DNA of 60,568 nt, from the NCBI GenBank assembly GCA_964356285.1, contig CAYHGI010000001.1, positions 1 to 60,568 on the forward strand. Reading direction: 5' to 3'. Made by a program: the position numbers and the translations under genes. Source of the stretch: an uncultured Candidatus Saccharibacteria bacterium (GTDB lineage: Bacteria > Patescibacteriota > Minisyncoccia > Phycocordibacterales > UBA9973). Positions within the stretch are counted from its first letter, which is position 1. The number at the start of each line of letters is the position of its first letter. Shown piece by piece: positions 1,743 through 40,048 of the stretch. Below the pieces are notes generated by a model. That model was not told the origin of the DNA. It searched no databases and saw only the letters and a list, made by a program, of their open reading frames with translations.

Positions 1743-3470
1743 ATGAAATCAGAAATAAAAAATTGCCAGAATTGCAAACAAGACTTCACTATTGAGTCGG
1801 ATGATTTTGGATTTTATGAAAAGATAAAAGTCCCTCCGCCGACGTTTTGCCCGGAGTGCAGGAGGCAGCGCAGAAATGCTTGGAGAAATAATATTTCTTT
1901 GTATAGTGGGGTATGTGGCTTATGTAAAAAATCAGTGGTGACAATTTATTCTAAAGAATCTGGCGTTGTCATTTACTGCAACAAGTGCTGGTGGAGTGAT
2001 GCTTGGGATCCATTTAACTACGGACAGGACTATGATTTTTCTCGTCCTTTTTTTGAGCAATTTCATAAGTTTTCATTAAAAATTCCGCATATGGCATTGA
2101 TAAATGATAATGGTATCGCGAGTTTAAATTGTGAATACACACAAGATTTTTCGTTTGGGAAAAATTGTTATATGGTTTTTGTCGCTTGGTATGTTGAAAA
2201 TGTTTTGTACAGTTATTTTATACTTGCAGGCAAGGACATAATGGATTGTATGAATATCAGATCCAAAAGCGAATGGCTGTATGAATGTATGATTGTGAGT
2301 CTGTCTTATAGGGTCAAATACTCCCAATTTTGTCTGGCTTGCATCGATTCCCAATTTTTATACGATTGTCGGAATTGTTCCAATTGCTTTATGTGTGCCG
2401 GATTACGTGATAAGAAATTTTATTTTAAAAACAGACAATACTCCAAAAAAGAATATGAAAAAATTTTAGAAAGCTACCGATTAGATACTTTTAGCGGGGT
2501 GGAAAAAGCGCAGAAAGAATATGATGATTTTATTCTAAAATATCCCCGCAGGTATGCACATAATTTTCAAAATGGCAGAAATATCACTGGCGACGTCGTT
2601 TCATACTCTAAAAATTTAAAAGATTGTTTCATTGCCAAAAAATCAGAAAATTGTCGATCTTGCGATTTGGTTGCCGACATGAAAGACTCCTACGACATGT
2701 CCGGTGGAGGAGAATTAAGCGAGTGTTATGAGGGTCTGGTATGCGATCATTCTAGCCGGAATTTATTTGGGATTTATTCTTGGAAAAGTCAGGACGTATT
2801 GTATACAGAACATTGCCATTCCTCTAAATCGCTTTTTGGATGTGTGGGGCTTAAAAGTAAAAAATATTGTATTTTTAATAAGCAATACACCAAAGAAGAA
2901 TACGAAAAAATCTTGCCGAAAATTATACAACAGATGGGGGAAATACCCCATATTGATAAAACAGGAAACAGCTATAAATTTGGGGAATTTTATCCGATAG
3001 AGCTTTCGCCATTTGGTTATAATGAAACTGAAGCGATGAATCATTTTTTATTAACACGAGATGAAGCACTGGGCAAAGGTTTCAATTGGCAGGAAAATAT
3101 ACAGCGAACAACTGGCAAGGAAACATTAAAACCAGAAAGTATTCCTGACAGCATAAATGAAATAGAGGATTCAATATTGGACGAAGTGCTTGTTTGTGTT
3201 GATTGTAAAAGAAATTATAAAATTGTTCCAAACGAACTAATATTCTATAGAAAAATGGAAATTCCAATTCCAAGAAGATGTTTTTATTGTCGTCATGAAG
3301 CAAGATTGAAACGCATAAATCCCTTCAGGCTTTGGCATAGGCAGTGCATGTGTGACAAAAAGCATAATAATCACAAAGGGAAGTGTGAAGTAGAATTTGA
3401 AACTTCGTATGCGCCAGAGCGGCCGGAAATTGTTTATTGCGAAAAATGTTACCAGCAGGAAGTGTACTAA
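1743..3470 (+). CDS. cysteine-rich protein with N- and C-terminal double zinc-ribbon modules (paralogue 1)
   Basis: 575-aa ORF with many CxxC pairs. It shares both termini with 3511-5268 and 34558-36267. Confidence 0.8.
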   Translation: MKSEIKNCQNCKQDFTIESDDFGFYEKIKVPPPTFCPECRRQRRNAWRNNISLYSGVCGLCKKSVVTIYSKESGVVIYCNKCWWSDAWDPFNYGQDYDFSRPFFEQFHKFSLKIPHMALINDNGIASLNCEYTQDFSFGKNCYMVFVAWYVENVLYSYFILAGKDIMDCMNIRSKSEWLYECMIVSLSYRVKYSQFCLACIDSQFLYDCRNCSNCFMCAGLRDKKFYFKNRQYSKKEYEKILESYRLDTFSGVEKAQKEYDDFILKYPRRYAHNFQNGRNITGDVVSYSKNLKDCFIAKKSENCRSCDLVADMKDSYDMSGGGELSECYEGLVCDHSSRNLFGIYSWKSQDVLYTEHCHSSKSLFGCVGLKSKKYCIFNKQYTKEEYEKILPKIIQQMGEIPHIDKTGNSYKFGEFYPIELSPFGYNETEAMNHFLLTRDEALGKGFNWQENIQRTTGKETLKPESIPDSINEIEDSILDEVLVCVDCKRNYKIVPNELIFYRKMEIPIPRRCFYCRHEARLKRINPFRLWHRQCMCDKKHNNHKGKCEVEFETSYAPERPEIVYCEKCYQQEVY

Positions 3471-3510
3471 GTATATTATGATATTATCGATAATGTCATA
3501 ATTAAAAATT

Positions 3511-5268
3511 ATGAAAAGTGAAAATAAAATTTGCCAGAATTGTAAAAAAGGTTTCGTGATAGAGCCGGATGATTTTGGTTTTTATGAAAAAATAAAAGTC
3601 CCTCCGCCGACTTGGTGTTGGAAATGTCGAGCGATACGTAGAATGGCTTTCCGGAATATGCGTCATTTTTATATGCGAACTTGCGATGCAACAGGCGCTA
3701 AAATATTTACATTTATTCCACCCGGGAATCCAATGCCAGTATATAGCAATGATTATTGGAACAGCGATAAATGGGACCCCCTTGATTATGGCAGGGAGTA
3801 TGATTTTTCCAGGCCTTTTTTCGATCAAATTCGCGATCTTTATAATGCAGTGCCGTGGGGCATAATGTGGTCAATGGAAATGGTAAATTGCAATTACAGC
3901 GTTTCAGCTTTTTCTAGAAATTGTTATATGTGTTTTGATTCTGGTTATGATGAAGATAGCGCATATAATGTAACCTTGCTTTATAGCAAACAATGTTTTG
4001 ACGCTTTAAATTTAAAAGACTGTGAATTATGTTATTACTGTCTAAATACTAATCAGTCATATAAAACTTATTTTTCTAGAGATTGTACCGCATGTGTAGA
4101 TGTTTGGTTTAGCCAAGATTGTGTAGGGTGTATAAACTGTTTTGGTTGCAGTAGTCTCCGAAATAAAAATTATCATATTTTTAACAAGCCATATGATAAA
4201 GAAACTTATAATATTAAGCTAGCTGAAATGAAACTTGATTCTTGGTCTGGTATTCAACAAGCAAGAAAACTTGCCGAAGGATTATGGCAAAAATCCCCAG
4301 TTAAATTTCAGCACAGTATTCAAGTGACGCATAGTACAGGAGATTATATTTATAATGGCACGGAATTAGTTAACTGTTTTTTTGTTGGAAACGCAAAAAA
4401 TATGAAACATTGTCAGAGTGTGATTTATCCTCCTAATAATGACAGTATAGACATAACTTCTAGTGAAGGAACAGAGCTTGCATACGAAACAAGTTGTTGT
4501 GGAAATGGAATACATAAAACAGTCGGTGTAACTGAATGTGCTGTCGTAAGTGATAGTTTTTACTCAATAAATTGTCGAAATATATCGAATGTTTTCGGGT
4601 GCGTGGCCTTGCGGAGCAAAAATTATTGCATATTAAACAAACAATATAGCAAAGAGGAATATTTTAATTTGCTTCCAAAGATAAAAAAACATATGGATGA
4701 GATGCCTTATATTGACGCAAAGAAACGAGTTTATCGATTTGGAGAATTTTTTCCGGTAGATATAGCTCCTCATGGCTACGGTCAGTCGCAAGCCTCCGAG
4801 TATTTTTCGATTACTGAAGACGAGGCGAAAAAGAAAGGGTATTGTTGGAAAAAGCCAGAAAAAAGAAATTATATTATTACGAAAAAAGCCAGCGAACTTG
4901 AAGATAATATCGATAAAGTATCGGATAAAATTCTTGAAGAAGTAATTCAATGTGAGCACGAAGAAACTAATAGTCATACATTTGGTTGTAATGTTGATTG
5001 TGCAACCGCCTTTCGTATTACCAAACAAGAATTAGATTTCTACCGTCAAGCAAAGTTGCCTCTACCCAGATTTTGTTTTAATTGCAGACATGTTGATAGA
5101 GTTAAGTGGCGTAATTTACCAGAATTACATCATCGACAATGTATGTGTGACAAAGAAAACCATTTTCACGGGGCAGGGAAGTGCAAAGTGGAATTTGAAA
5201 CAAGTTATGCTCCCGACCGTCCGGAAATTGTTTATTGCGAGAAATGTTATCAGCAGGAAGTGTACTAG
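3511..5268 (+). CDS. cysteine-rich protein with N- and C-terminal double zinc-ribbon modules (paralogue 2)
   Basis: 585-aa ORF, tandem to paralogue 1. It has the same MKSE.K.CQNC start and EFETSYAP.RPEIVYCEKCYQQEVY end. Confidence 0.8.
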   Translation: MKSENKICQNCKKGFVIEPDDFGFYEKIKVPPPTWCWKCRAIRRMAFRNMRHFYMRTCDATGAKIFTFIPPGNPMPVYSNDYWNSDKWDPLDYGREYDFSRPFFDQIRDLYNAVPWGIMWSMEMVNCNYSVSAFSRNCYMCFDSGYDEDSAYNVTLLYSKQCFDALNLKDCELCYYCLNTNQSYKTYFSRDCTACVDVWFSQDCVGCINCFGCSSLRNKNYHIFNKPYDKETYNIKLAEMKLDSWSGIQQARKLAEGLWQKSPVKFQHSIQVTHSTGDYIYNGTELVNCFFVGNAKNMKHCQSVIYPPNNDSIDITSSEGTELAYETSCCGNGIHKTVGVTECAVVSDSFYSINCRNISNVFGCVALRSKNYCILNKQYSKEEYFNLLPKIKKHMDEMPYIDAKKRVYRFGEFFPVDIAPHGYGQSQASEYFSITEDEAKKKGYCWKKPEKRNYIITKKASELEDNIDKVSDKILEEVIQCEHEETNSHTFGCNVDCATAFRITKQELDFYRQAKLPLPRFCFNCRHVDRVKWRNLPELHHRQCMCDKENHFHGAGKCKVEFETSYAPDRPEIVYCEKCYQQEVY

Positions 5269-9636: not shown

Positions 9637-10044
9637 ATGCAAAAGTATAACATTCCTTTTATTCCTTACGAAAAAAATCTAGTTTCTCGAGCAAGAGAAT
9701 TAAGAAAAGAAACCACAGAAGCAGAAAAAATCTTCTGGAATAGAATTTTAAAACATAAAGATTTGCTGAATTTTAAATTTACTAGACAAAAGCCACTTGA
9801 TCATTTTATTGTCGATTTTTATTGTTCAAGTTTAGGACTTGTGATCGAAATAGATGGGATTATTCATGATTTTCAAAAAGTGAGAGATCAAGAAAGGGAC
9901 ACTATTTTGCAGGAAAAATTTGGATTGAAAATAGTAAGATACACAAATGAAGAAGTTATTAATAATACAGAAAAAATTATTCAGGATTTAATAAGAAGAA
10001 CTAAAACCCTCTCCCGACCTCTCCCTTATCAGGGTGAAGGGTAG
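9637..10044 (+). CDS. DUF559 (Vsr-like) endonuclease domain protein
   Basis: 135 aa with the typical LRKETTEAEKIFWNRIL...KFTRQKPLDHFIVDFYC....LVIEIDG..H...RD..RD..L...G..IVRYTNEEV pattern. The C-terminal SRPLPYQGEG is encoded by a family-1 repeat. Confidence 0.8.
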   Translation: MQKYNIPFIPYEKNLVSRARELRKETTEAEKIFWNRILKHKDLLNFKFTRQKPLDHFIVDFYCSSLGLVIEIDGIIHDFQKVRDQERDTILQEKFGLKIVRYTNEEVINNTEKIIQDLIRRTKTLSRPLPYQGEG

Positions 10045-17093: not shown

Positions 17094-18782
17094 TTATTCA
17101 AAATATTCCGGAGTGTTGATGGACATCCAGTCCAGAAGTTCTCGCATGACAGAGGACGCATTTCTGCCGCTGGTTGAAGAACCGGCTTCCAGCATAACAA
17201 CAAAAGAATATTTCGGCTTTTCGTAAGGGAAAAAACCAACAATCCAAGAATTTACCTTGTTTTTAGCGGTTCCAAGCTGGGCGGTGCCGGTTTTAGCGGC
17301 TATTTGCACATAAGGAACATTTAAATTTAAGGCAGTGCCATAAGTGACCGCCTGTCGCATACCATCATGCACCACGTCAAAATATTCTTTTTTTATATTT
17401 ATGATTTCCACTTTTTTTTCCATTTCCTTATCTTCCAATAAAAAATGCGGAGTGAACAGCTTTCCATAATTCGCAATTGCTCCGATAGCCCGCACTATTT
17501 CCATCGGGGTAACTTGAAATCCATATTGTCCAATAGCCGTGTTATAAGTGTCTCCGATACGCCAAGGATCTCCGTTGAAATTAGCCATTTTCCATTCCGG
17601 ACTAGGAATAATACCTTCGATTTCATCCGGCAAATCAACACCTGTTTTTTCTCCTAAACCGAAAAGCTCCGCATATTTTTTTATATTAGCAATACCAAGT
17701 CCTTTTTGATTTTCAAAACCTCCCCCTATTTCATAAAAATAAATGTCGGAAGAAACAGCCAGCGCTTCTGCCATATTGGTCCAGCCATTTGCTCTCCAAT
17801 CTTTAAAAACTGTTTTTTGATCCGGAAAATAAGGGTTAGGAATAGAAATAGAACCGGTGGAAAGAATTTTTTTTGTTTGATCGATTACGCCTTCTATTAG
17901 TGCAGCTAATCCTAAAAATGGCTTGACGATGGATCCTGGAGCATAAAGGCCGGAAACATTTCTATCCAAGAAAAATTTCCTTTTATCATTTAAATAGCTG
18001 TTAATCTTTTTGGAATCTTTTCCTAAGGAAAGAATTTCGGAATTATATTCCGGAAAACTGGTGGAAGCTATTATTTCTCCGTTTCGCGTATCCATAATTA
18101 TTCCAGCTCCGCCCGTGAAAGAATTTTCGAATAAATTTTTAATTAAAGAAAATAATTCTGTTTGGATGCGCGCGTCTACGCTAGTAGCCAGATCGTTTCC
18201 CTTTTTAGGTATGTTGATAATATTTTCCGAATGAATAACTCCTTTGGCGTCGGTTTCTATTATCTTTGATCCGTTTTCTCCCTTTATTTGGCTATTATAT
18301 TTTTTTTCCAGTCCGTCTTTGCCCATAAATTCGTTTTGCCAGTAATTTCCCGCGTTGTCTTTTGCCGGATAGCTCACATAACCGAGCAGATGCGAAAATC
18401 CCGGAGACAAATAAGCGCGGGTGTATAAATTAGACGGATCGTCACTCTTTTTATTCCAAGCCAATTCTTTTTTATTTCTATCATAAATAATGCCTCTTTC
18501 CGTGAAGATATTTACTTTTTCCAAAATATTATTTTCGCTTCTTTTCCTGTAATTATCACCATTTTGTACCTGTAGATACACCAAGCGGGTTCCGAATATC
18601 AAAATAATCAAGAGAAAAAAAACACCAAGAAAGTTAATGGTTTTTTTAGGGATAGTTTTTTCTATTCGGCCTTCAAATTGTTGGCGATCAAAATTTTGCA
18701 AGTTCTTCGAGTCCAGGAAAATTTCATCCGGCTCCACGAAATTATTCTTGCTCTTGTTTTTTAAGAATTTTCCAAGATTCAT
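17094..18782 (-). CDS. penicillin-binding protein 2 (class B transpeptidase)
   Basis: N-terminal TM helix; SIVKPF (SxxK) and KTGTAQ motifs. The start at MNLGKF gives an ATGA overlap with the upstream ORF. Confidence 0.85.
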   Translation of the reverse strand: MNLGKFLKNKSKNNFVEPDEIFLDSKNLQNFDRQQFEGRIEKTIPKKTINFLGVFFLLIILIFGTRLVYLQVQNGDNYRKRSENNILEKVNIFTERGIIYDRNKKELAWNKKSDDPSNLYTRAYLSPGFSHLLGYVSYPAKDNAGNYWQNEFMGKDGLEKKYNSQIKGENGSKIIETDAKGVIHSENIINIPKKGNDLATSVDARIQTELFSLIKNLFENSFTGGAGIIMDTRNGEIIASTSFPEYNSEILSLGKDSKKINSYLNDKRKFFLDRNVSGLYAPGSIVKPFLGLAALIEGVIDQTKKILSTGSISIPNPYFPDQKTVFKDWRANGWTNMAEALAVSSDIYFYEIGGGFENQKGLGIANIKKYAELFGLGEKTGVDLPDEIEGIIPSPEWKMANFNGDPWRIGDTYNTAIGQYGFQVTPMEIVRAIGAIANYGKLFTPHFLLEDKEMEKKVEIINIKKEYFDVVHDGMRQAVTYGTALNLNVPYVQIAAKTGTAQLGTAKNKVNSWIVGFFPYEKPKYSFVVMLEAGSSTSGRNASSVMRELLDWMSINTPEYFE

Positions 18783-19036
18783 TTCCTTATTTTTTTCTTT
18801 AATAATTCTAAAATTATAAAACAAACCAAGGCCAACAGAAAAGAGATAAAAAGCATGTTGAAAAACCTCGGTTCTTTTGTTTGATAAAGCAGATCAGAAA
18901 TAAAAAATAAAAAGACCGCTTCCCAGAAAAATGTGAAATAAATCATACCCGCCAAAGCCAAAACGACAGAGACCCAAAAGGGCATAAAAAGTATGGAAAG
19001 CAATAAAATTGCAGAAGCAAAAATCCGTAGCAGCAT
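18779..19036 (-). CDS. small polytopic membrane protein (possibly MreD-like)
   Basis: 85 aa with three hydrophobic segments. It is coupled to PBP2 by a 4-nt overlap. Confidence 0.4.
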   Translation of the reverse strand: MLLRIFASAILLLSILFMPFWVSVVLALAGMIYFTFFWEAVFLFFISDLLYQTKEPRFFNMLFISFLLALVCFIILELLKKKIRK

Positions 19037-23184: not shown

Positions 23185-23802
23185 TTAGGTTAAATTGAAA
23201 TACTTTTTGATTTTTTCATCGCGCAGTATGTTGTCAACAGTCAAAACTTCAACATACTTCACTACCCCAAAGAAATCAGAGATGAAGATAATTTCATCTT
23301 CACATGGATACGGATATATCCAGGCGGACTTCTGGAATTGGAAAAAATCCAGATTTTTTAGGTGATAACGCAGCGCCTCTCTTCCTTTTGTAAATCTCAT
23401 AGGTATATCAAACATCGCTAATCTCCATTTCCCATCCCATCTCTTCGGTATTTTAATCTTCATTAACTCAATGTCGAATTCTCTAAGTCTAACTTCTCCC
23501 CTTTTAGTGACTTTAACTATTGCTTTACCATTTTTGTCTCTAACATATTCGATGAGTTTTTGGCGCTTCAAGCTATCGATAGCATTCTGGATCTGCCTTT
23601 TGGAATACCTTTTAGAACCTTCAAACATACCAAAGCATTGCACAGCATTGCCTATAACAGCGGCACCAAGCACAAGAACGGGAAGCGAAGCTAGTGCAAC
23701 GACGCATAGAGCAACAGTAGCAATCTTTGCTTCTTTGGTGTCAGAATTCAAAAAATTTCTTAATCTCTCTGTATAGTTGTCTTTATTTTTTAGTATTTCC
23801 AT
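23185..23802 (-). CDS. PaaX-family/Cas2-like-domain regulator with N-terminal TM helix
   Basis: The hydrophobic segment AKIATVALCVVALASLPVLVLGAAVIG is followed by a winged-helix-like part. After that comes KRWDGKWRLAMFDIPMRFTKGREALRYHLKNLDFFQFQKSAWIYP, typical of the PaaX C-terminal region. Confidence 0.6.
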   Translation of the reverse strand: MEILKNKDNYTERLRNFLNSDTKEAKIATVALCVVALASLPVLVLGAAVIGNAVQCFGMFEGSKRYSKRQIQNAIDSLKRQKLIEYVRDKNGKAIVKVTKRGEVRLREFDIELMKIKIPKRWDGKWRLAMFDIPMRFTKGREALRYHLKNLDFFQFQKSAWIYPYPCEDEIIFISDFFGVVKYVEVLTVDNILRDEKIKKYFNLT

Positions 23803-31773: not shown

Positions 31774-32325
31774 TCATTTCTTAGAAAGCTTTTCTAAAAC
31801 TTCTACGTATAGCTGATTTTCTTTTTTCTTGAGTCTGGCGTACAAAGATTCAACATTGTCATCAGTTTCAATTTTCTCAAAAGTTCTGCCTAAGACCGGT
31901 CCGAAATCAAAATCCAAAGTTAAAAAATGAATAGAAGATCCTGCATAAGTGCTTTTTTGATCTAGGAAATTAGCAATAGCTTTACTGCCATACATTCCTT
32001 TGTTCCAGAGAGCTTTTGTGTTGTCAGGATTTAATACTTCTCCATTTACTGTGTCTGGGATTAATCCCGGATGTAAATTTAAAATTCTGTTTTCATATTT
32101 TCTTATTATTTCGTCAGGGATTATCTTCTTCCATCCAGCGAGGCATATATAGTCTGGTGATATTTTTTCTAGTATTGATGTAGGGTTTTCTGTGTCCGTT
32201 ATAACCGTAAGAATTTCTGCATTTATAATTTTTGCATCAATGGCACTCCTAACTACTTTTAAGTTAGTTTGAGCGCCCCCTTGGTGAACCATAAAAACCA
32301 ATTTTATTTTATTCTTTTGGAACAT
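31774..32325 (-). CDS. purN: phosphoribosylglycinamide formyltransferase
   Basis: ILNLHPGLIP and formyltransferase fold features. The start is set at MFQKNKIKLVFM, because the longer ORF overlaps purF by more than 200 nt. Confidence 0.75.
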   Translation of the reverse strand: MFQKNKIKLVFMVHQGGAQTNLKVVRSAIDAKIINAEILTVITDTENPTSILEKISPDYICLAGWKKIIPDEIIRKYENRILNLHPGLIPDTVNGEVLNPDNTKALWNKGMYGSKAIANFLDQKSTYAGSSIHFLTLDFDFGPVLGRTFEKIETDDNVESLYARLKKKENQLYVEVLEKLSKK

Positions 32326-33712
32326 CGTAATTAATCTCTTTTTCCCGCTCCCAAATAGGGATAGGATAAGTTCCATCAAAAGATGAAAGCGAGAAATGGC
32401 TTTTGGGTAGTCCAGTAGCCGCGACCATCCCTTTAATTGACAGATATGAAAGAGAGGTAGCTCCGAGAAATTCGCAAATTTCTTTAGTCGTTTTCTGTGA
32501 GGCAATGAGATCCGATTGTTTGGGAGTATCAATGCCATAAAAGTCCGGAAATTTTATCGGGGCGGAACTGACCAAGAAATGCACTTCTGTGGCTCCGGCA
32601 TCAAAAAGCATTTTCACAATCTGTTTAGAGGTGGTTCCGCGAACAATGGAGTCGTCCATGACCGCAATTTTCTTTCCTTTTATTACGCTTGCCAATGGAC
32701 TTAATTTCATTTTTACTTTTTCATTGCGCAGTTCTTGAGTAGGTTCAATAAAGGTGCGGTTGATGTAGTGGTTTTTAGAAATTCCCATCTCAAATGGAAT
32801 TCCGGATTCTTCGGCATAGCCGATAGCCGCTGGTACGGCTGTATCTGGAACCGGAATAACCATATCGACATCTAATTTATGTTCCCGGGCAAGAATTCTA
32901 CCTAAATTTTTCCTTACTTCATATACAGATTTGCCTAATATCGTACTGTCATAACGAGCGAAGTATATGAATTCAAAAATATCAAGTTTTTGTTTTTGTT
33001 CTGCCAGTTTTCTGCTTTCTACTCCATTTTTGTTTATTACTACCATTTCTCCCGGCCTTATTTCTCTAACTAATTCTGCTCTGATTGTCTGTAAGGCGCA
33101 TGTTTCTGATGATACGATCATTTCTTTTCCTTTTTTTCCTAGAACTAGCGGTCGAATGCCGCAAGCATCGCGAAAGGCTACCATGGTGTCTAATCCGAGA
33201 GCCACGCAAGAAAACGCTCCGGTAAAAAGAGGATATGCTTTAGCCACCGCATCCGGCAATGATAGTCCTTCTTTCATGCAAGATCCGATTGCTTGAGTCA
33301 TAAGCTGGGAATCAGACCGGTTTTCCGTGATCTCTCCGCGATTTTTTAAAAATTGAACTAGCGCTTCGGTACTTGGCAGATTTCCGTTGTGTCCAAACAC
33401 AAAAAGATTTTCATACAAAAACGGCTGGGCGTATTCAACATGATTGCCTTTGGACGTAGAGTAACGGTTATGTCCGATTGCGGCAAAACCGGGAAGTTGT
33501 TTTATGATTTCTTCTGTATAAATTTGACTCACTAGGCCTGAATTTTTGTGTATATAAATTTTTTTACCATCGGTGGTTGCAATTCCCGAGTGCTCTTGAC
33601 CGCGATGTTGCAACGCAAAAAGCCCGAAATACGTTTCTCTAGCAGTTTCATTTAGAAAAAGTTTATTCTCTCCAAAAATTCCAAAAACTGCGCATTTTTC
33701 ATTTAGGTCCAT
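32309..33712 (-). CDS. purF: amidophosphoribosyltransferase
   Basis: N-terminal CAVFGIFG (Ntn Cys), the PRTase motif VMDDSIVRGTT, and pur context. Confidence 0.95.
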   Translation of the reverse strand: MDLNEKCAVFGIFGENKLFLNETARETYFGLFALQHRGQEHSGIATTDGKKIYIHKNSGLVSQIYTEEIIKQLPGFAAIGHNRYSTSKGNHVEYAQPFLYENLFVFGHNGNLPSTEALVQFLKNRGEITENRSDSQLMTQAIGSCMKEGLSLPDAVAKAYPLFTGAFSCVALGLDTMVAFRDACGIRPLVLGKKGKEMIVSSETCALQTIRAELVREIRPGEMVVINKNGVESRKLAEQKQKLDIFEFIYFARYDSTILGKSVYEVRKNLGRILAREHKLDVDMVIPVPDTAVPAAIGYAEESGIPFEMGISKNHYINRTFIEPTQELRNEKVKMKLSPLASVIKGKKIAVMDDSIVRGTTSKQIVKMLFDAGATEVHFLVSSAPIKFPDFYGIDTPKQSDLIASQKTTKEICEFLGATSLSYLSIKGMVAATGLPKSHFSLSSFDGTYPIPIWEREKEINYDVPKE

Positions 33713-33784: not shown

Positions 33785-34558
33785 TTATTTCTTGAAATAA
33801 TTAACAGCATTTTTTAAAATCTTCAGGCCCTTACCCCATTTTTCCATTTTCTCTTTTACTTGCCTGCCCCGTAGGAAGCTTGCTTTCCTTCGGGGCCATA
33901 AAGGGCTTTGGTGCGAGAACATCGCTCGCTCCGGATGCGGCATCATTCCCAGAACTCTCCCATTATAAGCTAAAACTCCAGCAATGTCATAATCCGATCC
34001 GTTTGGGTTGGGTTCTAAGTTTTGAAATTTACAAATCGGACCTTTCACGTATTTGAAGGCTACTGTCCCTTTTTGCTTAGGGTCTACAACATAATGTCCT
34101 TCGCCGTGGGCGATTGGTAGAGATATTTTTTTAATGTTTTTAAGCCATGGACTATTATTTTTTTCGATTTGTAAATCTACCCACCTATCTATATATCTGC
34201 CATTTTTATTTTGCGCTAGAGCGCCGGGCAAGATTCCGAGGTTTGTCATAATCTGAAATCCGTTACAAATCCCTATAGCCAGAGTGTCGCGAGACAAAAA
34301 TTCTTCAAGCTCTTTTGCTAAATGATTTTTAAATTTGTTAGCATACGCCTTGCCGGATCCGGTATCATCTCCATAAGAAAATCCTCCCGGAAAAACGAGG
34401 ATCTGATATTTTGAGAGTATTTTAGGTTCGGCGATCAGATCATTGATGTGCACTATGTCAGCCATGCCTCCCGCAGAGTCAAAAGCGAATTTCGTCTCCT
34501 CTTCGCAATTGAGTCCGTAGCCAGACATTATTATTATTTTTGGATTTTTATTTTTCAT
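33785..34558 (-). CDS. purQ: FGAM synthase glutaminase subunit
   Basis: GICNGFQ (nucleophile Cys) and MPHPER motifs. The start at MKNKNPKIIIMSG shares one base with the upstream stop (TAATG). Confidence 0.85.
   Translation of the reverse strand: MKNKNPKIIIMSGYGLNCEEETKFAFDSAGGMADIVHINDLIAEPKILSKYQILVFPGGFSYGDDTGSGKAYANKFKNHLAKELEEFLSRDTLAIGICNGFQIMTNLGILPGALAQNKNGRYIDRWVDLQIEKNNSPWLKNIKKISLPIAHGEGHYVVDPKQKGTVAFKYVKGPICKFQNLEPNPNGSDYDIAGVLAYNGRVLGMMPHPERAMFSHQSPLWPRRKASFLRGRQVKEKMEKWGKGLKILKNAVNYFKK
33862..33895. repeat. family-2 34-nt palindromic element inside purQ
   Basis: gcctgccccgtaggaagcttgctttccttcgggg, translated as [11 protein letters not shown]. Confidence 0.75.
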
Positions 34559-36267
34559 TAATATATCTCCTGCTGATAACATTTTTCGCAGTATACTATT
34601 TCCGACCTATCCGGTGCATAACTTGTTTTGAATGCCACTTCGCACTTATCTTGTCCATGAAAGTGGCTATTTTTGTCGCACATGCAGACTCTATCCCAAA
34701 GTTTTAGGGGATTTCTTTGACCTATTCTCTCGTAATGCCTGCAATTCGGGCACAATCGTGGCAAAGGCAGGCTCATTCTTTTATAGAATTTAAATTCTTC
34801 CGGAATAATCTTGAACGCTTCCGTGCACTGATGCTTGCATGCGCCGCCATGATTACAAGCAATTACTTTGCCTACTATATCATCTTCTATATCCTTAATA
34901 TTATCCGGGATATTTTTGGTTTCTATGTCAATTTTGTAATTTCTTTTTTCTTCATCTTGCCAGGTATAGTTTTTTGCGAGAGCTTCTTTTTTGGTTAGAG
35001 GAAAATATTCTTGGGCGATGGTTTCATTGTAAGCAAATGGAGATAACTCTTTTGGGAAAAATTCTCCGTATTCGCCTGTTGTTTTCATGTGCTCGATTAT
35101 TTTGGGCACAAGCGCCTCGTATTCTTCTTTGGTGTATTGTTTGTTTAATATACAATAGGATTTTTTACGAAGTCCCTCACATCCAAATATATTTGCACAG
35201 TTGTGACATTCTTCACTGTAGTATGTATTCTGGTTCATTAGATTTCTTATACTAAACGCTGTGTTTGATCCGGCGAAGCCGTGAGCCACTTCATAAAGAA
35301 GTTCGGCATTAAAGCCTTGGAAAGAAGTATCGTAACAATTTTTCGTTCCCCTTCTACAGAAGAACAAGTATTTCGAGTTTTCTGTCTGTCCGGAAGTAAA
35401 AGATATCTGGGTGTTTCTGGCTTCAGAAAGATCATCCCCGCTGGAATTCACGGATTTGTAAATACGAGCGTATCTGTGAGGCACATTTAATTTTAATTTT
35501 TGTAGCCTTTCTAAATTTTTTAAATGCTTAGTGTAACTTCCCTGATTTTCTTTTGTAAACTCTTTGTATGTTTCTTTAGTGACAGGCTGATTAAATATAT
35601 GATATTTTTTATTTACCAATCCGACGCAACCGAAACATTTTGTACAATTTCTACAATCAATTAAGTAGTAACTCTCCACGCAGTCTTTTGAGTAAGAGCT
35701 GAAAAAGACTTTATTAAATGATTTAGATTCGAAAATTTCATAACTGAACTCAATTTTCGAGGAAAAAGCTATATCCAAAGAATCGCGAGATTCGACGACC
35801 TGATTGCCGAAGTAAATTCTCTCATTGTTCATTCCCCCAAATAGCAAATAACATTCCTTAAAATCCAGACCATAGTTACAATAATCGCTCAAGATAAAAT
35901 TGTCGCGGTAAAGATTTACTCTGGGGACTGCTTCCATGAGAACTTTGAACTGATCAAAGAAAGGTTTAGAAAAATCGTAATCCTTACCGTAATCTATCGG
36001 ATTCCATTTATCGGAGAGCCAGCAATCGCGGCAATAAATAGTGTAGGGGCGACTTTTGTGATATATGGTGAGAACTGGCTCGTGGCATAAGACGCATTCT
36101 CTTTTGTAAAGAACTCTGTTGTTTCTAAAAAGCAATCTTCTCTGAAACCTGCATTCTGGGCAAAAAGTCGGCGACGGCACCTTCATCTTCTCATAAAATC
36201 CAAAATCATCCGACTCAATGACGAATTCTTTTTGGCAGTTTTGGCAATTTTTTGTTTCAGTTTTCAT
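34558..36267 (-). CDS. cysteine-rich protein with N- and C-terminal double zinc-ribbon modules (paralogue 3)
   Basis: 569 aa. It starts MKTETKNCQNCQKEFVIESDDFGFYEKMKVPSPTFCPECR and ends FKTSYAPDRSEIVYCEKCYQQEIY. It lies between purL and purQ. Confidence 0.8.
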   Translation of the reverse strand: MKTETKNCQNCQKEFVIESDDFGFYEKMKVPSPTFCPECRFQRRLLFRNNRVLYKRECVLCHEPVLTIYHKSRPYTIYCRDCWLSDKWNPIDYGKDYDFSKPFFDQFKVLMEAVPRVNLYRDNFILSDYCNYGLDFKECYLLFGGMNNERIYFGNQVVESRDSLDIAFSSKIEFSYEIFESKSFNKVFFSSYSKDCVESYYLIDCRNCTKCFGCVGLVNKKYHIFNQPVTKETYKEFTKENQGSYTKHLKNLERLQKLKLNVPHRYARIYKSVNSSGDDLSEARNTQISFTSGQTENSKYLFFCRRGTKNCYDTSFQGFNAELLYEVAHGFAGSNTAFSIRNLMNQNTYYSEECHNCANIFGCEGLRKKSYCILNKQYTKEEYEALVPKIIEHMKTTGEYGEFFPKELSPFAYNETIAQEYFPLTKKEALAKNYTWQDEEKRNYKIDIETKNIPDNIKDIEDDIVGKVIACNHGGACKHQCTEAFKIIPEEFKFYKRMSLPLPRLCPNCRHYERIGQRNPLKLWDRVCMCDKNSHFHGQDKCEVAFKTSYAPDRSEIVYCEKCYQQEIY

Positions 36268-39283: not shown

Positions 39284-40048
39284 CTAACCTTCAAGATTTT
39301 TCCAGTTATTTTCAAATATTAATTTCTGGGTTTGATAAATTTCTTGGTTCTCTATTACGATGCCAACTGGCTTGTCCGCGTTGTCGAGACTTATATGAGC
39401 CACCTTTCCAACATAAATAATTTCATATGTTGGTCGAAGATTCTCCTCTCCTTTTTCCTTGGGCAGTTTCATCCATTTTCTTTCATCAAGACCATGTAAA
39501 ATGCCTCCCTCACCAAGAGCAATTGTTTTAACTTTTATTTTTCTTCTTATCCTCTTCTTGCTAAAATCTTTCATAGCCAAATAGACATTCTTCCTGACTG
39601 TTGCAGAGGAGTATACATAATATGTTTTGTTCTTTGTGCCGTCCATACTCTTTAAAACATCTTCTAGAATGTGCCTGATACCCATTGTTCCTTCATATAG
39701 TTTAACAGCCGGTTTTCCTCCCTGTTTTTCAAATAGAGTTTTAAATAATGGTAAGCTTTCCTCAATGTTTTCCTTAATCTCGTTTAAGTTTTCTTGTTTC
39801 TTGTCTATTACAGCTAGAAGAGTCTCTGGTCGTTCGGCTATAAAATATTGCTTTGACTGCTTATTAAAATAAGAAACTATTCCCATATTGATTAGAGATT
39901 TTAAAATATCGTAAGTTGTCCCACGGTTCACTTTTGCCTTTTCTGCTACTGTGCGCACGGAAGAAGAACCAAGCTCAATCAAAGCAAGGTATACCGCTAC
40001 CTCTTTTTCCGAGAGACCAAAGTTTTTAAGAATAACCTGAATTTGCAT
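39284..40048 (-). CDS. TrmB-family transcriptional regulator
   Basis: N-terminus LKNFGLSEKEVAVYLALIELGSSSVRTVAEKAKVNRGTTYDILKSLINMGIV is a TrmB-type wHTH. Confidence 0.75.
   Translation of the reverse strand: MQIQVILKNFGLSEKEVAVYLALIELGSSSVRTVAEKAKVNRGTTYDILKSLINMGIVSYFNKQSKQYFIAERPETLLAVIDKKQENLNEIKENIEESLPLFKTLFEKQGGKPAVKLYEGTMGIRHILEDVLKSMDGTKNKTYYVYSSATVRKNVYLAMKDFSKKRIRRKIKVKTIALGEGGILHGLDERKWMKLPKEKGEENLRPTYEIIYVGKVAHISLDNADKPVGIVIENQEIYQTQKLIFENNWKNLEG

Follow-up and report, generated by a model that had tools for sequence, protein, structure and literature searches.

Cysteine-rich proteins with zinc-finger end modules in Patescibacteria and their possible partnership with VirD4/TraD-like ATPases

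Among described systems, those closest to the proteins treated here are the type IV coupling proteins VirD4, TraD and TrwB with their substrates, for instance the X-Tfe effectors of Xanthomonas, which carry a conserved C-terminal VirD4-interacting domain. We analysed a stretch of 60,568 nucleotides (nt) on a contig from a groundwater member of the Patescibacteria (CAYHGI010000001.1; the whole stretch is called the window below), which holds three genes, named pA, pB and pC, for large cysteine-rich proteins. Like type IV substrates, the proteins of this family are cytoplasmic by prediction, lack a Sec signal, are encoded beside VirD4-family ATPases in related loci and have a C-terminal region common to the paralogues; they differ from such substrates in being conserved over their whole length, in a predicted folded zinc C-terminus and in having no toxin or enzymatic domain, while the ATPases differ from type IV coupling proteins in being soluble and rarely near type IV secretion system (T4SS) genes. 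The reading that we tentatively prefer is that the family consists of paralogue-specific partners, either adaptors or client-binding subunits, of orphan coupling-protein-like ATPases.

Other likenesses concern parts of the proteins. The domain PF13451 (zf_Tbcl, 'probable treble clef / zinc-binding domain') resembles the first finger of the family, with CxxC-x24-CxxC and a helix at the second CxxC, but it is a domain of 48 residues, less than 10% of a family protein, and its library entry is a structural description only. TIGR04272/PF23477 has the spacing of the second finger (C58xxC61-x17-C79xxC82; C548-x17-C566xxC569), but spans 37 residues, and neither library entry gives a function. The Cys-ladder beta-helix with 12-residue turns of the Tenebrio molitor antifreeze protein (TCTxSxxCxxAx) is comparable, by analogy only, to the period-3 succession of small residues and Cys and the 12-residue super-period of the family centre; the family, however, has no Foldseek match and an irregular secondary structure in AlphaFold models, and disulfide ladders are unlikely since the proteins are cytoplasmic. 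Finally, DnaJ and other Hsp70 co-chaperones share multi-CxxC zinc modules with the family, whose genes lie between grpE, dnaK and dnaJ in Paceibacteria, but the family has neither a J domain nor the CxxCxGxG repeat, and the Hsp70 neighbourhood is absent from loci of Gracilibacteria type.

A large part of bacterial diversity belongs to the Patescibacteria, whose genomes are minimal. Paralogues of about 1.7 kb, three of them on this 60-kb contig and, at other loci, as many as 10 or more within some 20 kb, are a large investment by such genomes in a family without a name, a family model or a known fold.

Architecture of the proteins

The three genes are listed first, with AlphaFold confidence given as the predicted local distance difference test (pLDDT) and the predicted template modelling score (pTM); lengths are in amino acids (aa).

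Gene pA, 1743..3470, + strand: 575 aa, 35 Cys; 52 nt downstream of scpB; thousands of full-length homologues, the best at 78% identity; pLDDT 80, pTM 0.82.
Gene pB, 3511..5268, + strand: 585 aa, 37 Cys; 40 nt downstream of pA; second N-terminal zinc site lost; pLDDT 87.6, pTM 0.90 (more diverse alignment).
Gene pC, 34558..36267, - strand: 569 aa, 31 Cys; between purL and purQ; overlaps the mechanically listed purQ open reading frame (ORF) by 25 nt.

The products are paralogues, with pairwise identities of 43-46% (43% for pB against pA), and share a start, MK(S/T)E.K.CQNC..., and an end, ...EIVYCEKCYQQE(V/I)Y. No membrane segment was found in them: the highest 19-residue Kyte-Doolittle mean is 1.44 in pA, 0.98 in pB and 0.73 in pC, compared with 2.85 for MraY and 3.0 for FtsW of the same window, and the N-termini are polar as judged from sequence hydropathy, by which all three are predicted to be cytoplasmic. 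An earlier note on this DNA, written from the sequence alone, had described two adjacent paralogues and a third copy at these coordinates and with these lengths, their shared terminal motifs (both present in our alignment) and the lack of signal peptides and transmembrane segments, and in all of this it was right. The ORF at 17094-18824 (~576 aa), considered as a fourth member, was rejected, its translation reading as a penicillin-binding transpeptidase.

Run on an alignment of 128 sequences, hhalign pairs residues 4-85 with 481-572 (probability 99.4%, E-value (E) 2.6e-21), and residues 105-244 with 258-393 (probability 99.8%, E 6.7e-29). Hence the layout is an end module, two repeat modules (M1 and M2), a conserved linker domain and a second end module, distributed as follows.

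pA N-terminal end module, residues 1-95, 1743..2027, +: sub-threshold zf_Tbcl match at residues 7-46; homologous to the C module; spacings read from the sequence.
pA repeat module M1 with capping helix, residues 105-244, 2055..2474, +: ends DCxNCxNCFxCxGL..K.Y...N..YSK.EY; homologous to M2; period-3 Cys/Ser register; pLDDT 55-77.
pA repeat module M2 with capping helix, residues 258-393, 2514..2921, +: ends C..(H)......FGCVGL..K.YCI.NKQYTKEEY; found by hhalign; Cys columns 358, 367 and 376 conserved 79-97%.
pA conserved linker domain, residues 394-470, 2922..3152, +: GEFFP..LSPF.YNET motif; conserved across 73 members; pLDDT >90.
pA C-terminal end module, residues 471-575, 3153..3467, +: aligned to the N module by hhalign; invariant tail EIVYCEKCYQQEVY.
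pB N-terminal end module, 3511..3795, +: from the alignment; first zinc site alone complete.
pB M1 and M2, 3823..4680 (M1 3823-4227, M2 4267-4680), +: mapped from the alignment; AlphaFold beta strands in M2.
pB C-terminal end module, 4909..5265, +: from the alignment.
pC N-terminal end module, 35983..36267, -: from Pfam search and alignment.
pC M1 and M2, 35101..35955 (M1 35548-35955, M2 35101-35499), -: mapped from the alignment.
pC C-terminal end module, 34561..34899, -: from the alignment.

Each end module contains two fingers. In pA the N module reads C8xxC11-x24-C36xxC39, followed by an Arg-rich helix, CR.QRR...RN, and by C58xxC61-x17-C79xxC82, and the C module reads C485xxC488-x24-C513xxC516, followed by C535 and C548-x17-C566xxC569 with an inserted CxC..HxH loop, present in the C module of ~70% of members. 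Both AlphaFold models have the treble-clef layout, with a helix that starts at residue 37, right after C36, and the eight cysteines of the two first fingers (C8, C11, C36, C39, C485, C488, C513, C516) are 75-100% conserved among 73 diverse members taken from 50%-identity clusters, the set used throughout for conservation. PF13451 scores 16.9 bits on pA and 16.0 bits on pC and does not match pB (gathering threshold 24 bits), and it matches 31 of the 73 members at E<=0.1 (best 2.5e-6); some members in the database come with a precomputed PF13451 match, which is probably the source of the names 'zinc-binding / zinc-ribbon domain containing protein' given to a few of them. For the second finger, the CxxC-x17-CxxC spacing is exact in the N modules of pA and pC, and in all C modules it is C548-x17-C566xxC569, the loop splitting the first pair; PF23477 (zf_Tbcl_2) matches 31 of the 73 members at E<=0.1 (best 1.1e-6), and TIGR04272/PF23477 gives no match at E<=1 for the window proteins or their isolated end modules. 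From these matches and spacings, the first finger appears to correspond to zf_Tbcl and the second to zf_Tbcl_2/TIGR04272, and the family proteins are predicted to bind several metal ions, zinc being the likeliest. About half of the family lacks three of the four cysteines of the N-terminal second finger, as does pB, in which only C58 is left of that site.

The cysteines of the centre behave otherwise. Cysteine makes up ~6% of the family proteins (26-48 per protein, median 37), and no more than about 20 Cys columns reach a conservation of 70% or above: 8, 11, 36, 39 and 58; 142, 209, 212, 215 and 218; 358, 367 and 376; 485, 488, 513, 516, 535, 537, 548, 566 and 569. The CxxCxxCxxC run at 209-218 is conserved 74-92%, whereas in most Cys columns of the centre the share of Cys is only 30-70%, the alternatives being Ser, Ala, Thr, Val or Ile. 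Outside the conserved columns the central cysteines keep a strict period-3 register, with spectral power at period 3.0 of 0.48 and 0.52 (99.9th percentiles of shuffles 0.49 and 0.27), and a 12-residue super-period is seen at columns 130-172. Being replaceable and in this register, they look like buried core positions of a beta-rich repeat rather than ligands, and each half may end in a single metal site. With respect to the earlier note, the equivalence of the N- and C-terminal ~90 aa and the internal duplication of the centre stand; four CxxC pairs at both ends hold for the N modules of pA and pC (C8/11, C36/39, C58/61, C79/82) but not for the N module of pB or for the C modules with their loop-split pair, and the assignment of several dozen cysteines as metal ligands was overstated.

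That no named family covers the whole protein, which the note had been unable to place in one, was confirmed by the profile and structure searches, which returned only small fingers of the end modules. Pfam, NCBIfam, PADLOC and PHROGs gave only sub-threshold zinc-finger matches on pA, pB and pC; for the centre of ~300 aa there was no Pfam, NCBIfam, PADLOC or PDB sequence match; and neither a single protein nor a 128-sequence profile retrieved any PDB sequence at E<=10. Foldseek of the two models against the PDB found no match (best E 6.6 and 3.1), and in a viral structure library its matches were confined to small proteins of the zinc-ribbon type (E 3e-3 over 67 residues). Pfam HNH did not match the window proteins or the 73 members, and the HNH (His-Me finger) entries of the viral structure library reached E>=0.08 over ~65 residues, reflecting the shared treble clef only. 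Pfam DnaJ and DnaJ_CXXCXGXG were without match on the 73 members at E<=0.1, while the true DnaJ of neighbouring loci does match. The ferredoxin-type motif CxxCxxCxxxCP was not seen, the nearest run being C209xxC212xxC215xxC218, without the x3 spacing or the Pro, and Pfam Fer4 gave no match at E<=1. A phage origin was rejected, as tblastn found no family match in 50,697 phage records and a scan of viral contigs yielded a single marginal match, at a contig end. In literature searches on the domain names, cysteine-rich Patescibacteria families and zinc ribbons in the candidate phyla radiation (CPR), no account of the family turned up; neither the family nor its central fold nor its coupling to orphan coupling-protein ATPases seems to have been described before, and the central module merits a domain model and an experimental structure with metals. 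Separately, Pfam Med15_N matches 8 of the 73 members (best E 4.5e-6; also P0429), probably through a low-complexity insertion.

Family, arrays and adjoining ATPases

Three homologue searches returned at least 6,986, 7,975 and 6,839 matches, and an exhaustive profile search gave 4,544 clusters at 50% identity, of which 1,999 have E-values under 1e-30, with the best 150 clusters nearly all full length and a few shortened entries. All matches with an organism name belong to the Patescibacteria (CPR), in groups such as Nomura-, Paceibacter-, Azam-, Jorgensen-, Staskawicz-, Gracili- and Peregrinibacteria. Orthologues of pA and of pC fall into two separate groups, with identities of 64-78% within them; pC forms its own group at 66-75%, and the pB orthologues in L031 and L081 (numbered among the related loci described below) are 74-78% identical. 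The median identity of pA orthologues is 65%, compared with 70% for ScpA, 74% for ScpB, 60% for VanY and 77% for MraY of the same loci, and pC orthologues are 68-75% identical against 63-65% for PurL and 56% for PurF. Each paralogue is thus under purifying selection and kept about as well as core genes, and many anciently diverged paralogues are retained per genome. In M1 17% of the positions, and in its cap 13%, are conserved within the pA and pC groups but differ between them, compared with 3-4% for the N module and the linker; their concentration in M1 and cap fits a paralogue-specific surface. Some copies are split or shortened (384 + 166 aa in L083, 11662-13332; N-terminal fragments of 149 and 108 aa at L071:18916-19365 and L037:1473-1799), which suggests pseudogenes, frameshifts or recoding in some arrays.

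The survey of copy number and gene neighbourhood that the earlier note had proposed was run on 81 related loci, and it showed the family to be multi-copy, with arrays that adjoin genes for VirD4/TraD-like ATPases. The loci contain 184 members, all co-oriented, with 68 member-member junctions (median gap 38.5 nt) and arrays of up to 10 genes (L058, 18 kb), followed by 8 (L048) and 7 (L061). After the family itself, the commonest neighbour is a P-loop ATPase, with 45 genes in 28 of the 81 loci; 29 same-strand junctions join an ATPase gene directly to a member, at a median gap of 45 nt and with some overlaps of 4-8 nt. The ATPases match Pfam TrwB_AAD_bind, T4SS-DNA_transf, TraG-D_C and DUF87, and their best NCBIfam models are TraD and VirD4 CD1115, at scores far under the cut-offs. 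They come in two forms, ~480-530 aa and ~630-815 aa, neither with membrane segments. The long form carries PF23477/TIGR04272 above threshold, i.e. the second finger of the family end modules, and no fusion of ATPase and family modules beyond this finger was seen. In the low-complexity C-terminal tails of the ATPases the peptide PARNA(S/T)xSDAGG recurs (L010:17358-18938, L010:11777-13837, L021:7570-9987, L022:2504-4858), which might reflect a GC-rich palindromic DNA element within the coding sequence.

In Paceibacteria a recurring order is grpE, members, a PaaX-like gene on the other strand, dnaK, the long ATPase, 1-7 members, the short ATPase and dnaJ. The short ATPase lies directly upstream of dnaJ in 17 Paceibacteria loci (L020-L080, e.g. 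L059:7345-9963) and family members follow grpE in 7, so the canonical grpE-dnaK-dnaJ operon is interrupted. The same arrangement of members and ATPase, among unrelated neighbours, occurs in genomes of Gracilibacteria/Peregrinibacteria type, a second CPR class: three members and then a 742-aa ATPase in L084, five members and a 750-aa ATPase in L085, and three members, a 790-aa ATPase and three further members in L090. The ATPases of L084 and L085 are 48% identical to those of Paceibacteria. Winged-helix regulators also adjoin the arrays, PaaX-like in Paceibacteria and TrmB-like in Gracilibacteria-type genomes.

In 2,918 Patescibacteria genomes, a survey of 2025 counted 5,713 VirD4-type homologues, of which just 148 lie near virB4 (PMC12102498); its authors suggest exaptation of these homologues and do not mention the family (PMC12102498). 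The link between arrays and ATPases offers a handle on the question raised there, namely why there are about two coupling-protein homologues per genome far from secretion loci. In the partnership that we favour, the family proteins would work with the soluble VirD4/TraD-like P-loop ATPases (type IV coupling protein clade) that flank the arrays. A docking or nucleic-acid-binding function common to all members would fall to the shared finger (CxxC-x17-CxxC) and the Arg-rich helices, and the client or target of each paralogue would be set by its variable repeat modules; pA, pB and pC would be dispersed members of the set, transcribed with scpAB and the purine operons. A wider proposal, possible but doubtful in our estimate, is that arrays, two soluble ATPases per genome and winged-helix regulators make up an unrecognised Patescibacteria-wide machine, with the family as host-exported cargo or as motor adaptors, which would account for the orphan coupling proteins and would involve a new fold with up to six metal sites.

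Several points weigh against a partnership with the ATPases. The 81 loci were picked by similarity and some overlap (L039/L040); in about two thirds of them no ATPase is seen within 10 kb; and the adjacency in Paceibacteria is largely one syntenic block, so that shared ancestry inflates the counts. In the 60-kb window there is no coupling-protein ATPase, the only match being the 38-aa finger of pA itself, and pA, pB and pC are therefore tied to the ATPases by family membership only. Moreover, no catalytic motif or client can be named from the sequences, and the repeat modules are only moderately confident in the models (pLDDT 55-88).

Competing explanations

The ATPases could instead treat the family as cargo, handing it to a type IV secretion system for delivery to host cells, where the proteins would act as effectors for epibiotic life. 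The multi-copy arrays beside VirD4/TraD-like ATPases and the absence of a Sec signal, judged from hydropathy and polar N-termini, agree with such a role, but these ATPases lack a membrane anchor and seldom lie near virB4. While effectors typically evolve fast, the orthologues here evolve as slowly as core enzymes, and members sit within housekeeping operons. Type IV signals are, as is generally known, mostly C-terminal, and the extreme C-terminus of the family is invariant; the tail, however, holds C566 and C569, and both models draw it with confidence as a helix that takes in the last 10 residues (mean pLDDT of the final two blocks of 10 residues 83-96) and not as a disordered or charged signal. 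The Hsp70 genes grpE/dnaK/dnaJ that adjoin the arrays in Paceibacteria could hold cargo unfolded, although tightly metal-folded proteins would be poor translocation substrates. For a cultivated Patescibacteria strain, the 2025 survey reports T4SS genes as essential for epibiotic growth (PMC12102498, its ref. 37) but a t4cp homologue as non-essential (PMC12102498). On balance we consider a cargo role unlikely. Should the proteins be cargo, or motor adaptors, this would bear on how epibionts deal with hosts or with imported macromolecules.

Alternatively, the family might consist of stand-alone nucleic-acid-binding housekeeping proteins, such as DNA or RNA organisers or chaperones, with an ATPase adjacency that is mostly inherited synteny. 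The conserved CR.QRR...RN helix after the second CxxC and the mildly basic end modules would suit such a function, and the CxxC-x17-CxxC domain is often found together with helicases; on the other hand, the whole proteins are net acidic (median -6), their repeat modules are acidic, and no known DNA- or RNA-binding family was matched. Relatives of pA/pB follow scpA-scpB in 17 loci, and other members follow ribosomal-protein/rpoA and secY-adk blocks (names read from layout only) or lie near nucleotide-metabolism genes, but inherited synteny sits poorly with an ATPase adjacency found again in a second CPR class with other neighbours, and we regard this explanation as distinctly unlikely.

A narrower matter is the 3' end of the tandem pair. 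The earlier note had observed that the last ~50 nt of pA and pB are nearly identical, which is correct (46 of the last 48 nt), and had suggested gene conversion or nucleotide-level constraint, for which the codon-level comparison of the three copies gives weak support. At identical amino acids pA and pB share 13 of 16 codons in the tail against 50% elsewhere, an excess with a Fisher p of 0.013 that becomes 0.039 over 25 codons; 11 of 224 windows of 16 such sites, some overlapping the tail, score as high. Neither pA nor pB has a tail excess against pC, Rfam does not match the tail (in the window it matched only a tRNA), and the tail peptide is invariant family-wide. The invariant peptide and an AT-biased codon use explain most of the identity, so gene conversion is not needed, and either this or an RNA- or DNA-level element seems very unlikely.

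A role as metal or redox proteins (zinc or iron stores, iron-sulfur carriers, thiol redox buffers or sensors), to which the high cysteine content, the conserved run at 209-218, the heat-shock operon neighbours and the anaerobic life commonly ascribed to these bacteria could point, is the least credible of all, given that most central cysteines are replaceable by Ser, Ala or Val, that neither a ferredoxin-type motif nor a Fer4 match was found, and that a store needs neither many conserved diverged paralogues nor conserved non-Cys motifs.

Genes and sequence elements of the window

Within the window, pA and pB follow scpA-scpB and precede a convergent VanY gene, ahead of mraY-ftsW-murG. A DUF559 gene at 9637-10044 (+) lies between murG and the glutamyl-tRNA synthetase gene, and large ORFs near the end of the window encode TopA, RelA/SpoT and a copper-type P-type ATPase.

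A nearly complete cluster for de novo purine synthesis, which includes guaA, guaB and purA, occupies 19046-39233 on one Patescibacteria contig, and pC lies inside it. Pfam confirmed purB, purC, purM, purE, purH, guaA, guaB, purA and purD, while purN, purF, purQ and purL were assigned solely by ORF translation and synteny, and purK was not seen in the cluster. Members are likewise found inside purine clusters in L001, L064 and L081, and the wider set of loci with members in or close to purine genes comprises the window, L001, L027, L064, L081, L085 and L091; by a rough estimate this linkage is not clearly above chance, given the many copies per small genome.

Two possible regulators lie in this part of the window. 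A small PaaX_M (Cas2-like) protein is encoded at 23185-23802 (-) inside the purine cluster, and its relatives stand on the opposite strand directly downstream of a member in ~10 related loci (e.g. L042, L049, L054, L062, L066). A TrmB-family regulator is encoded at 39284-40048 (-), just upstream of purL-pC-purQ, and TrmB-like genes are divergent from, and directly upstream of, the arrays in L083, L085, L090 and two Joint Genome Institute contigs.

As for non-coding elements, promoter and terminator scans gave a background level only and were uninformative. Between scpB and pA, at 1698-1719, there is a perfect 8-bp GC hairpin, CCTCCCCC-TAAATA-GGGGGAGG, in an AT-rich genome and with no T tract after it, and the 40-nt spacer between pA and pB contains a perfect palindrome of 12 nt, ATTATCGATAAT, at 3483-3494. 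The sequence upstream of pB has nothing resembling a Shine-Dalgarno sequence; AAGGTG at 1732-1737 resembles a ribosome-binding site of pA. Finally, in the purine cluster the ORF read as purN (31774-32538) and that read as purF (32309-33712, -) overlap by 230 nt, and the start of the downstream ORF is probably further in.

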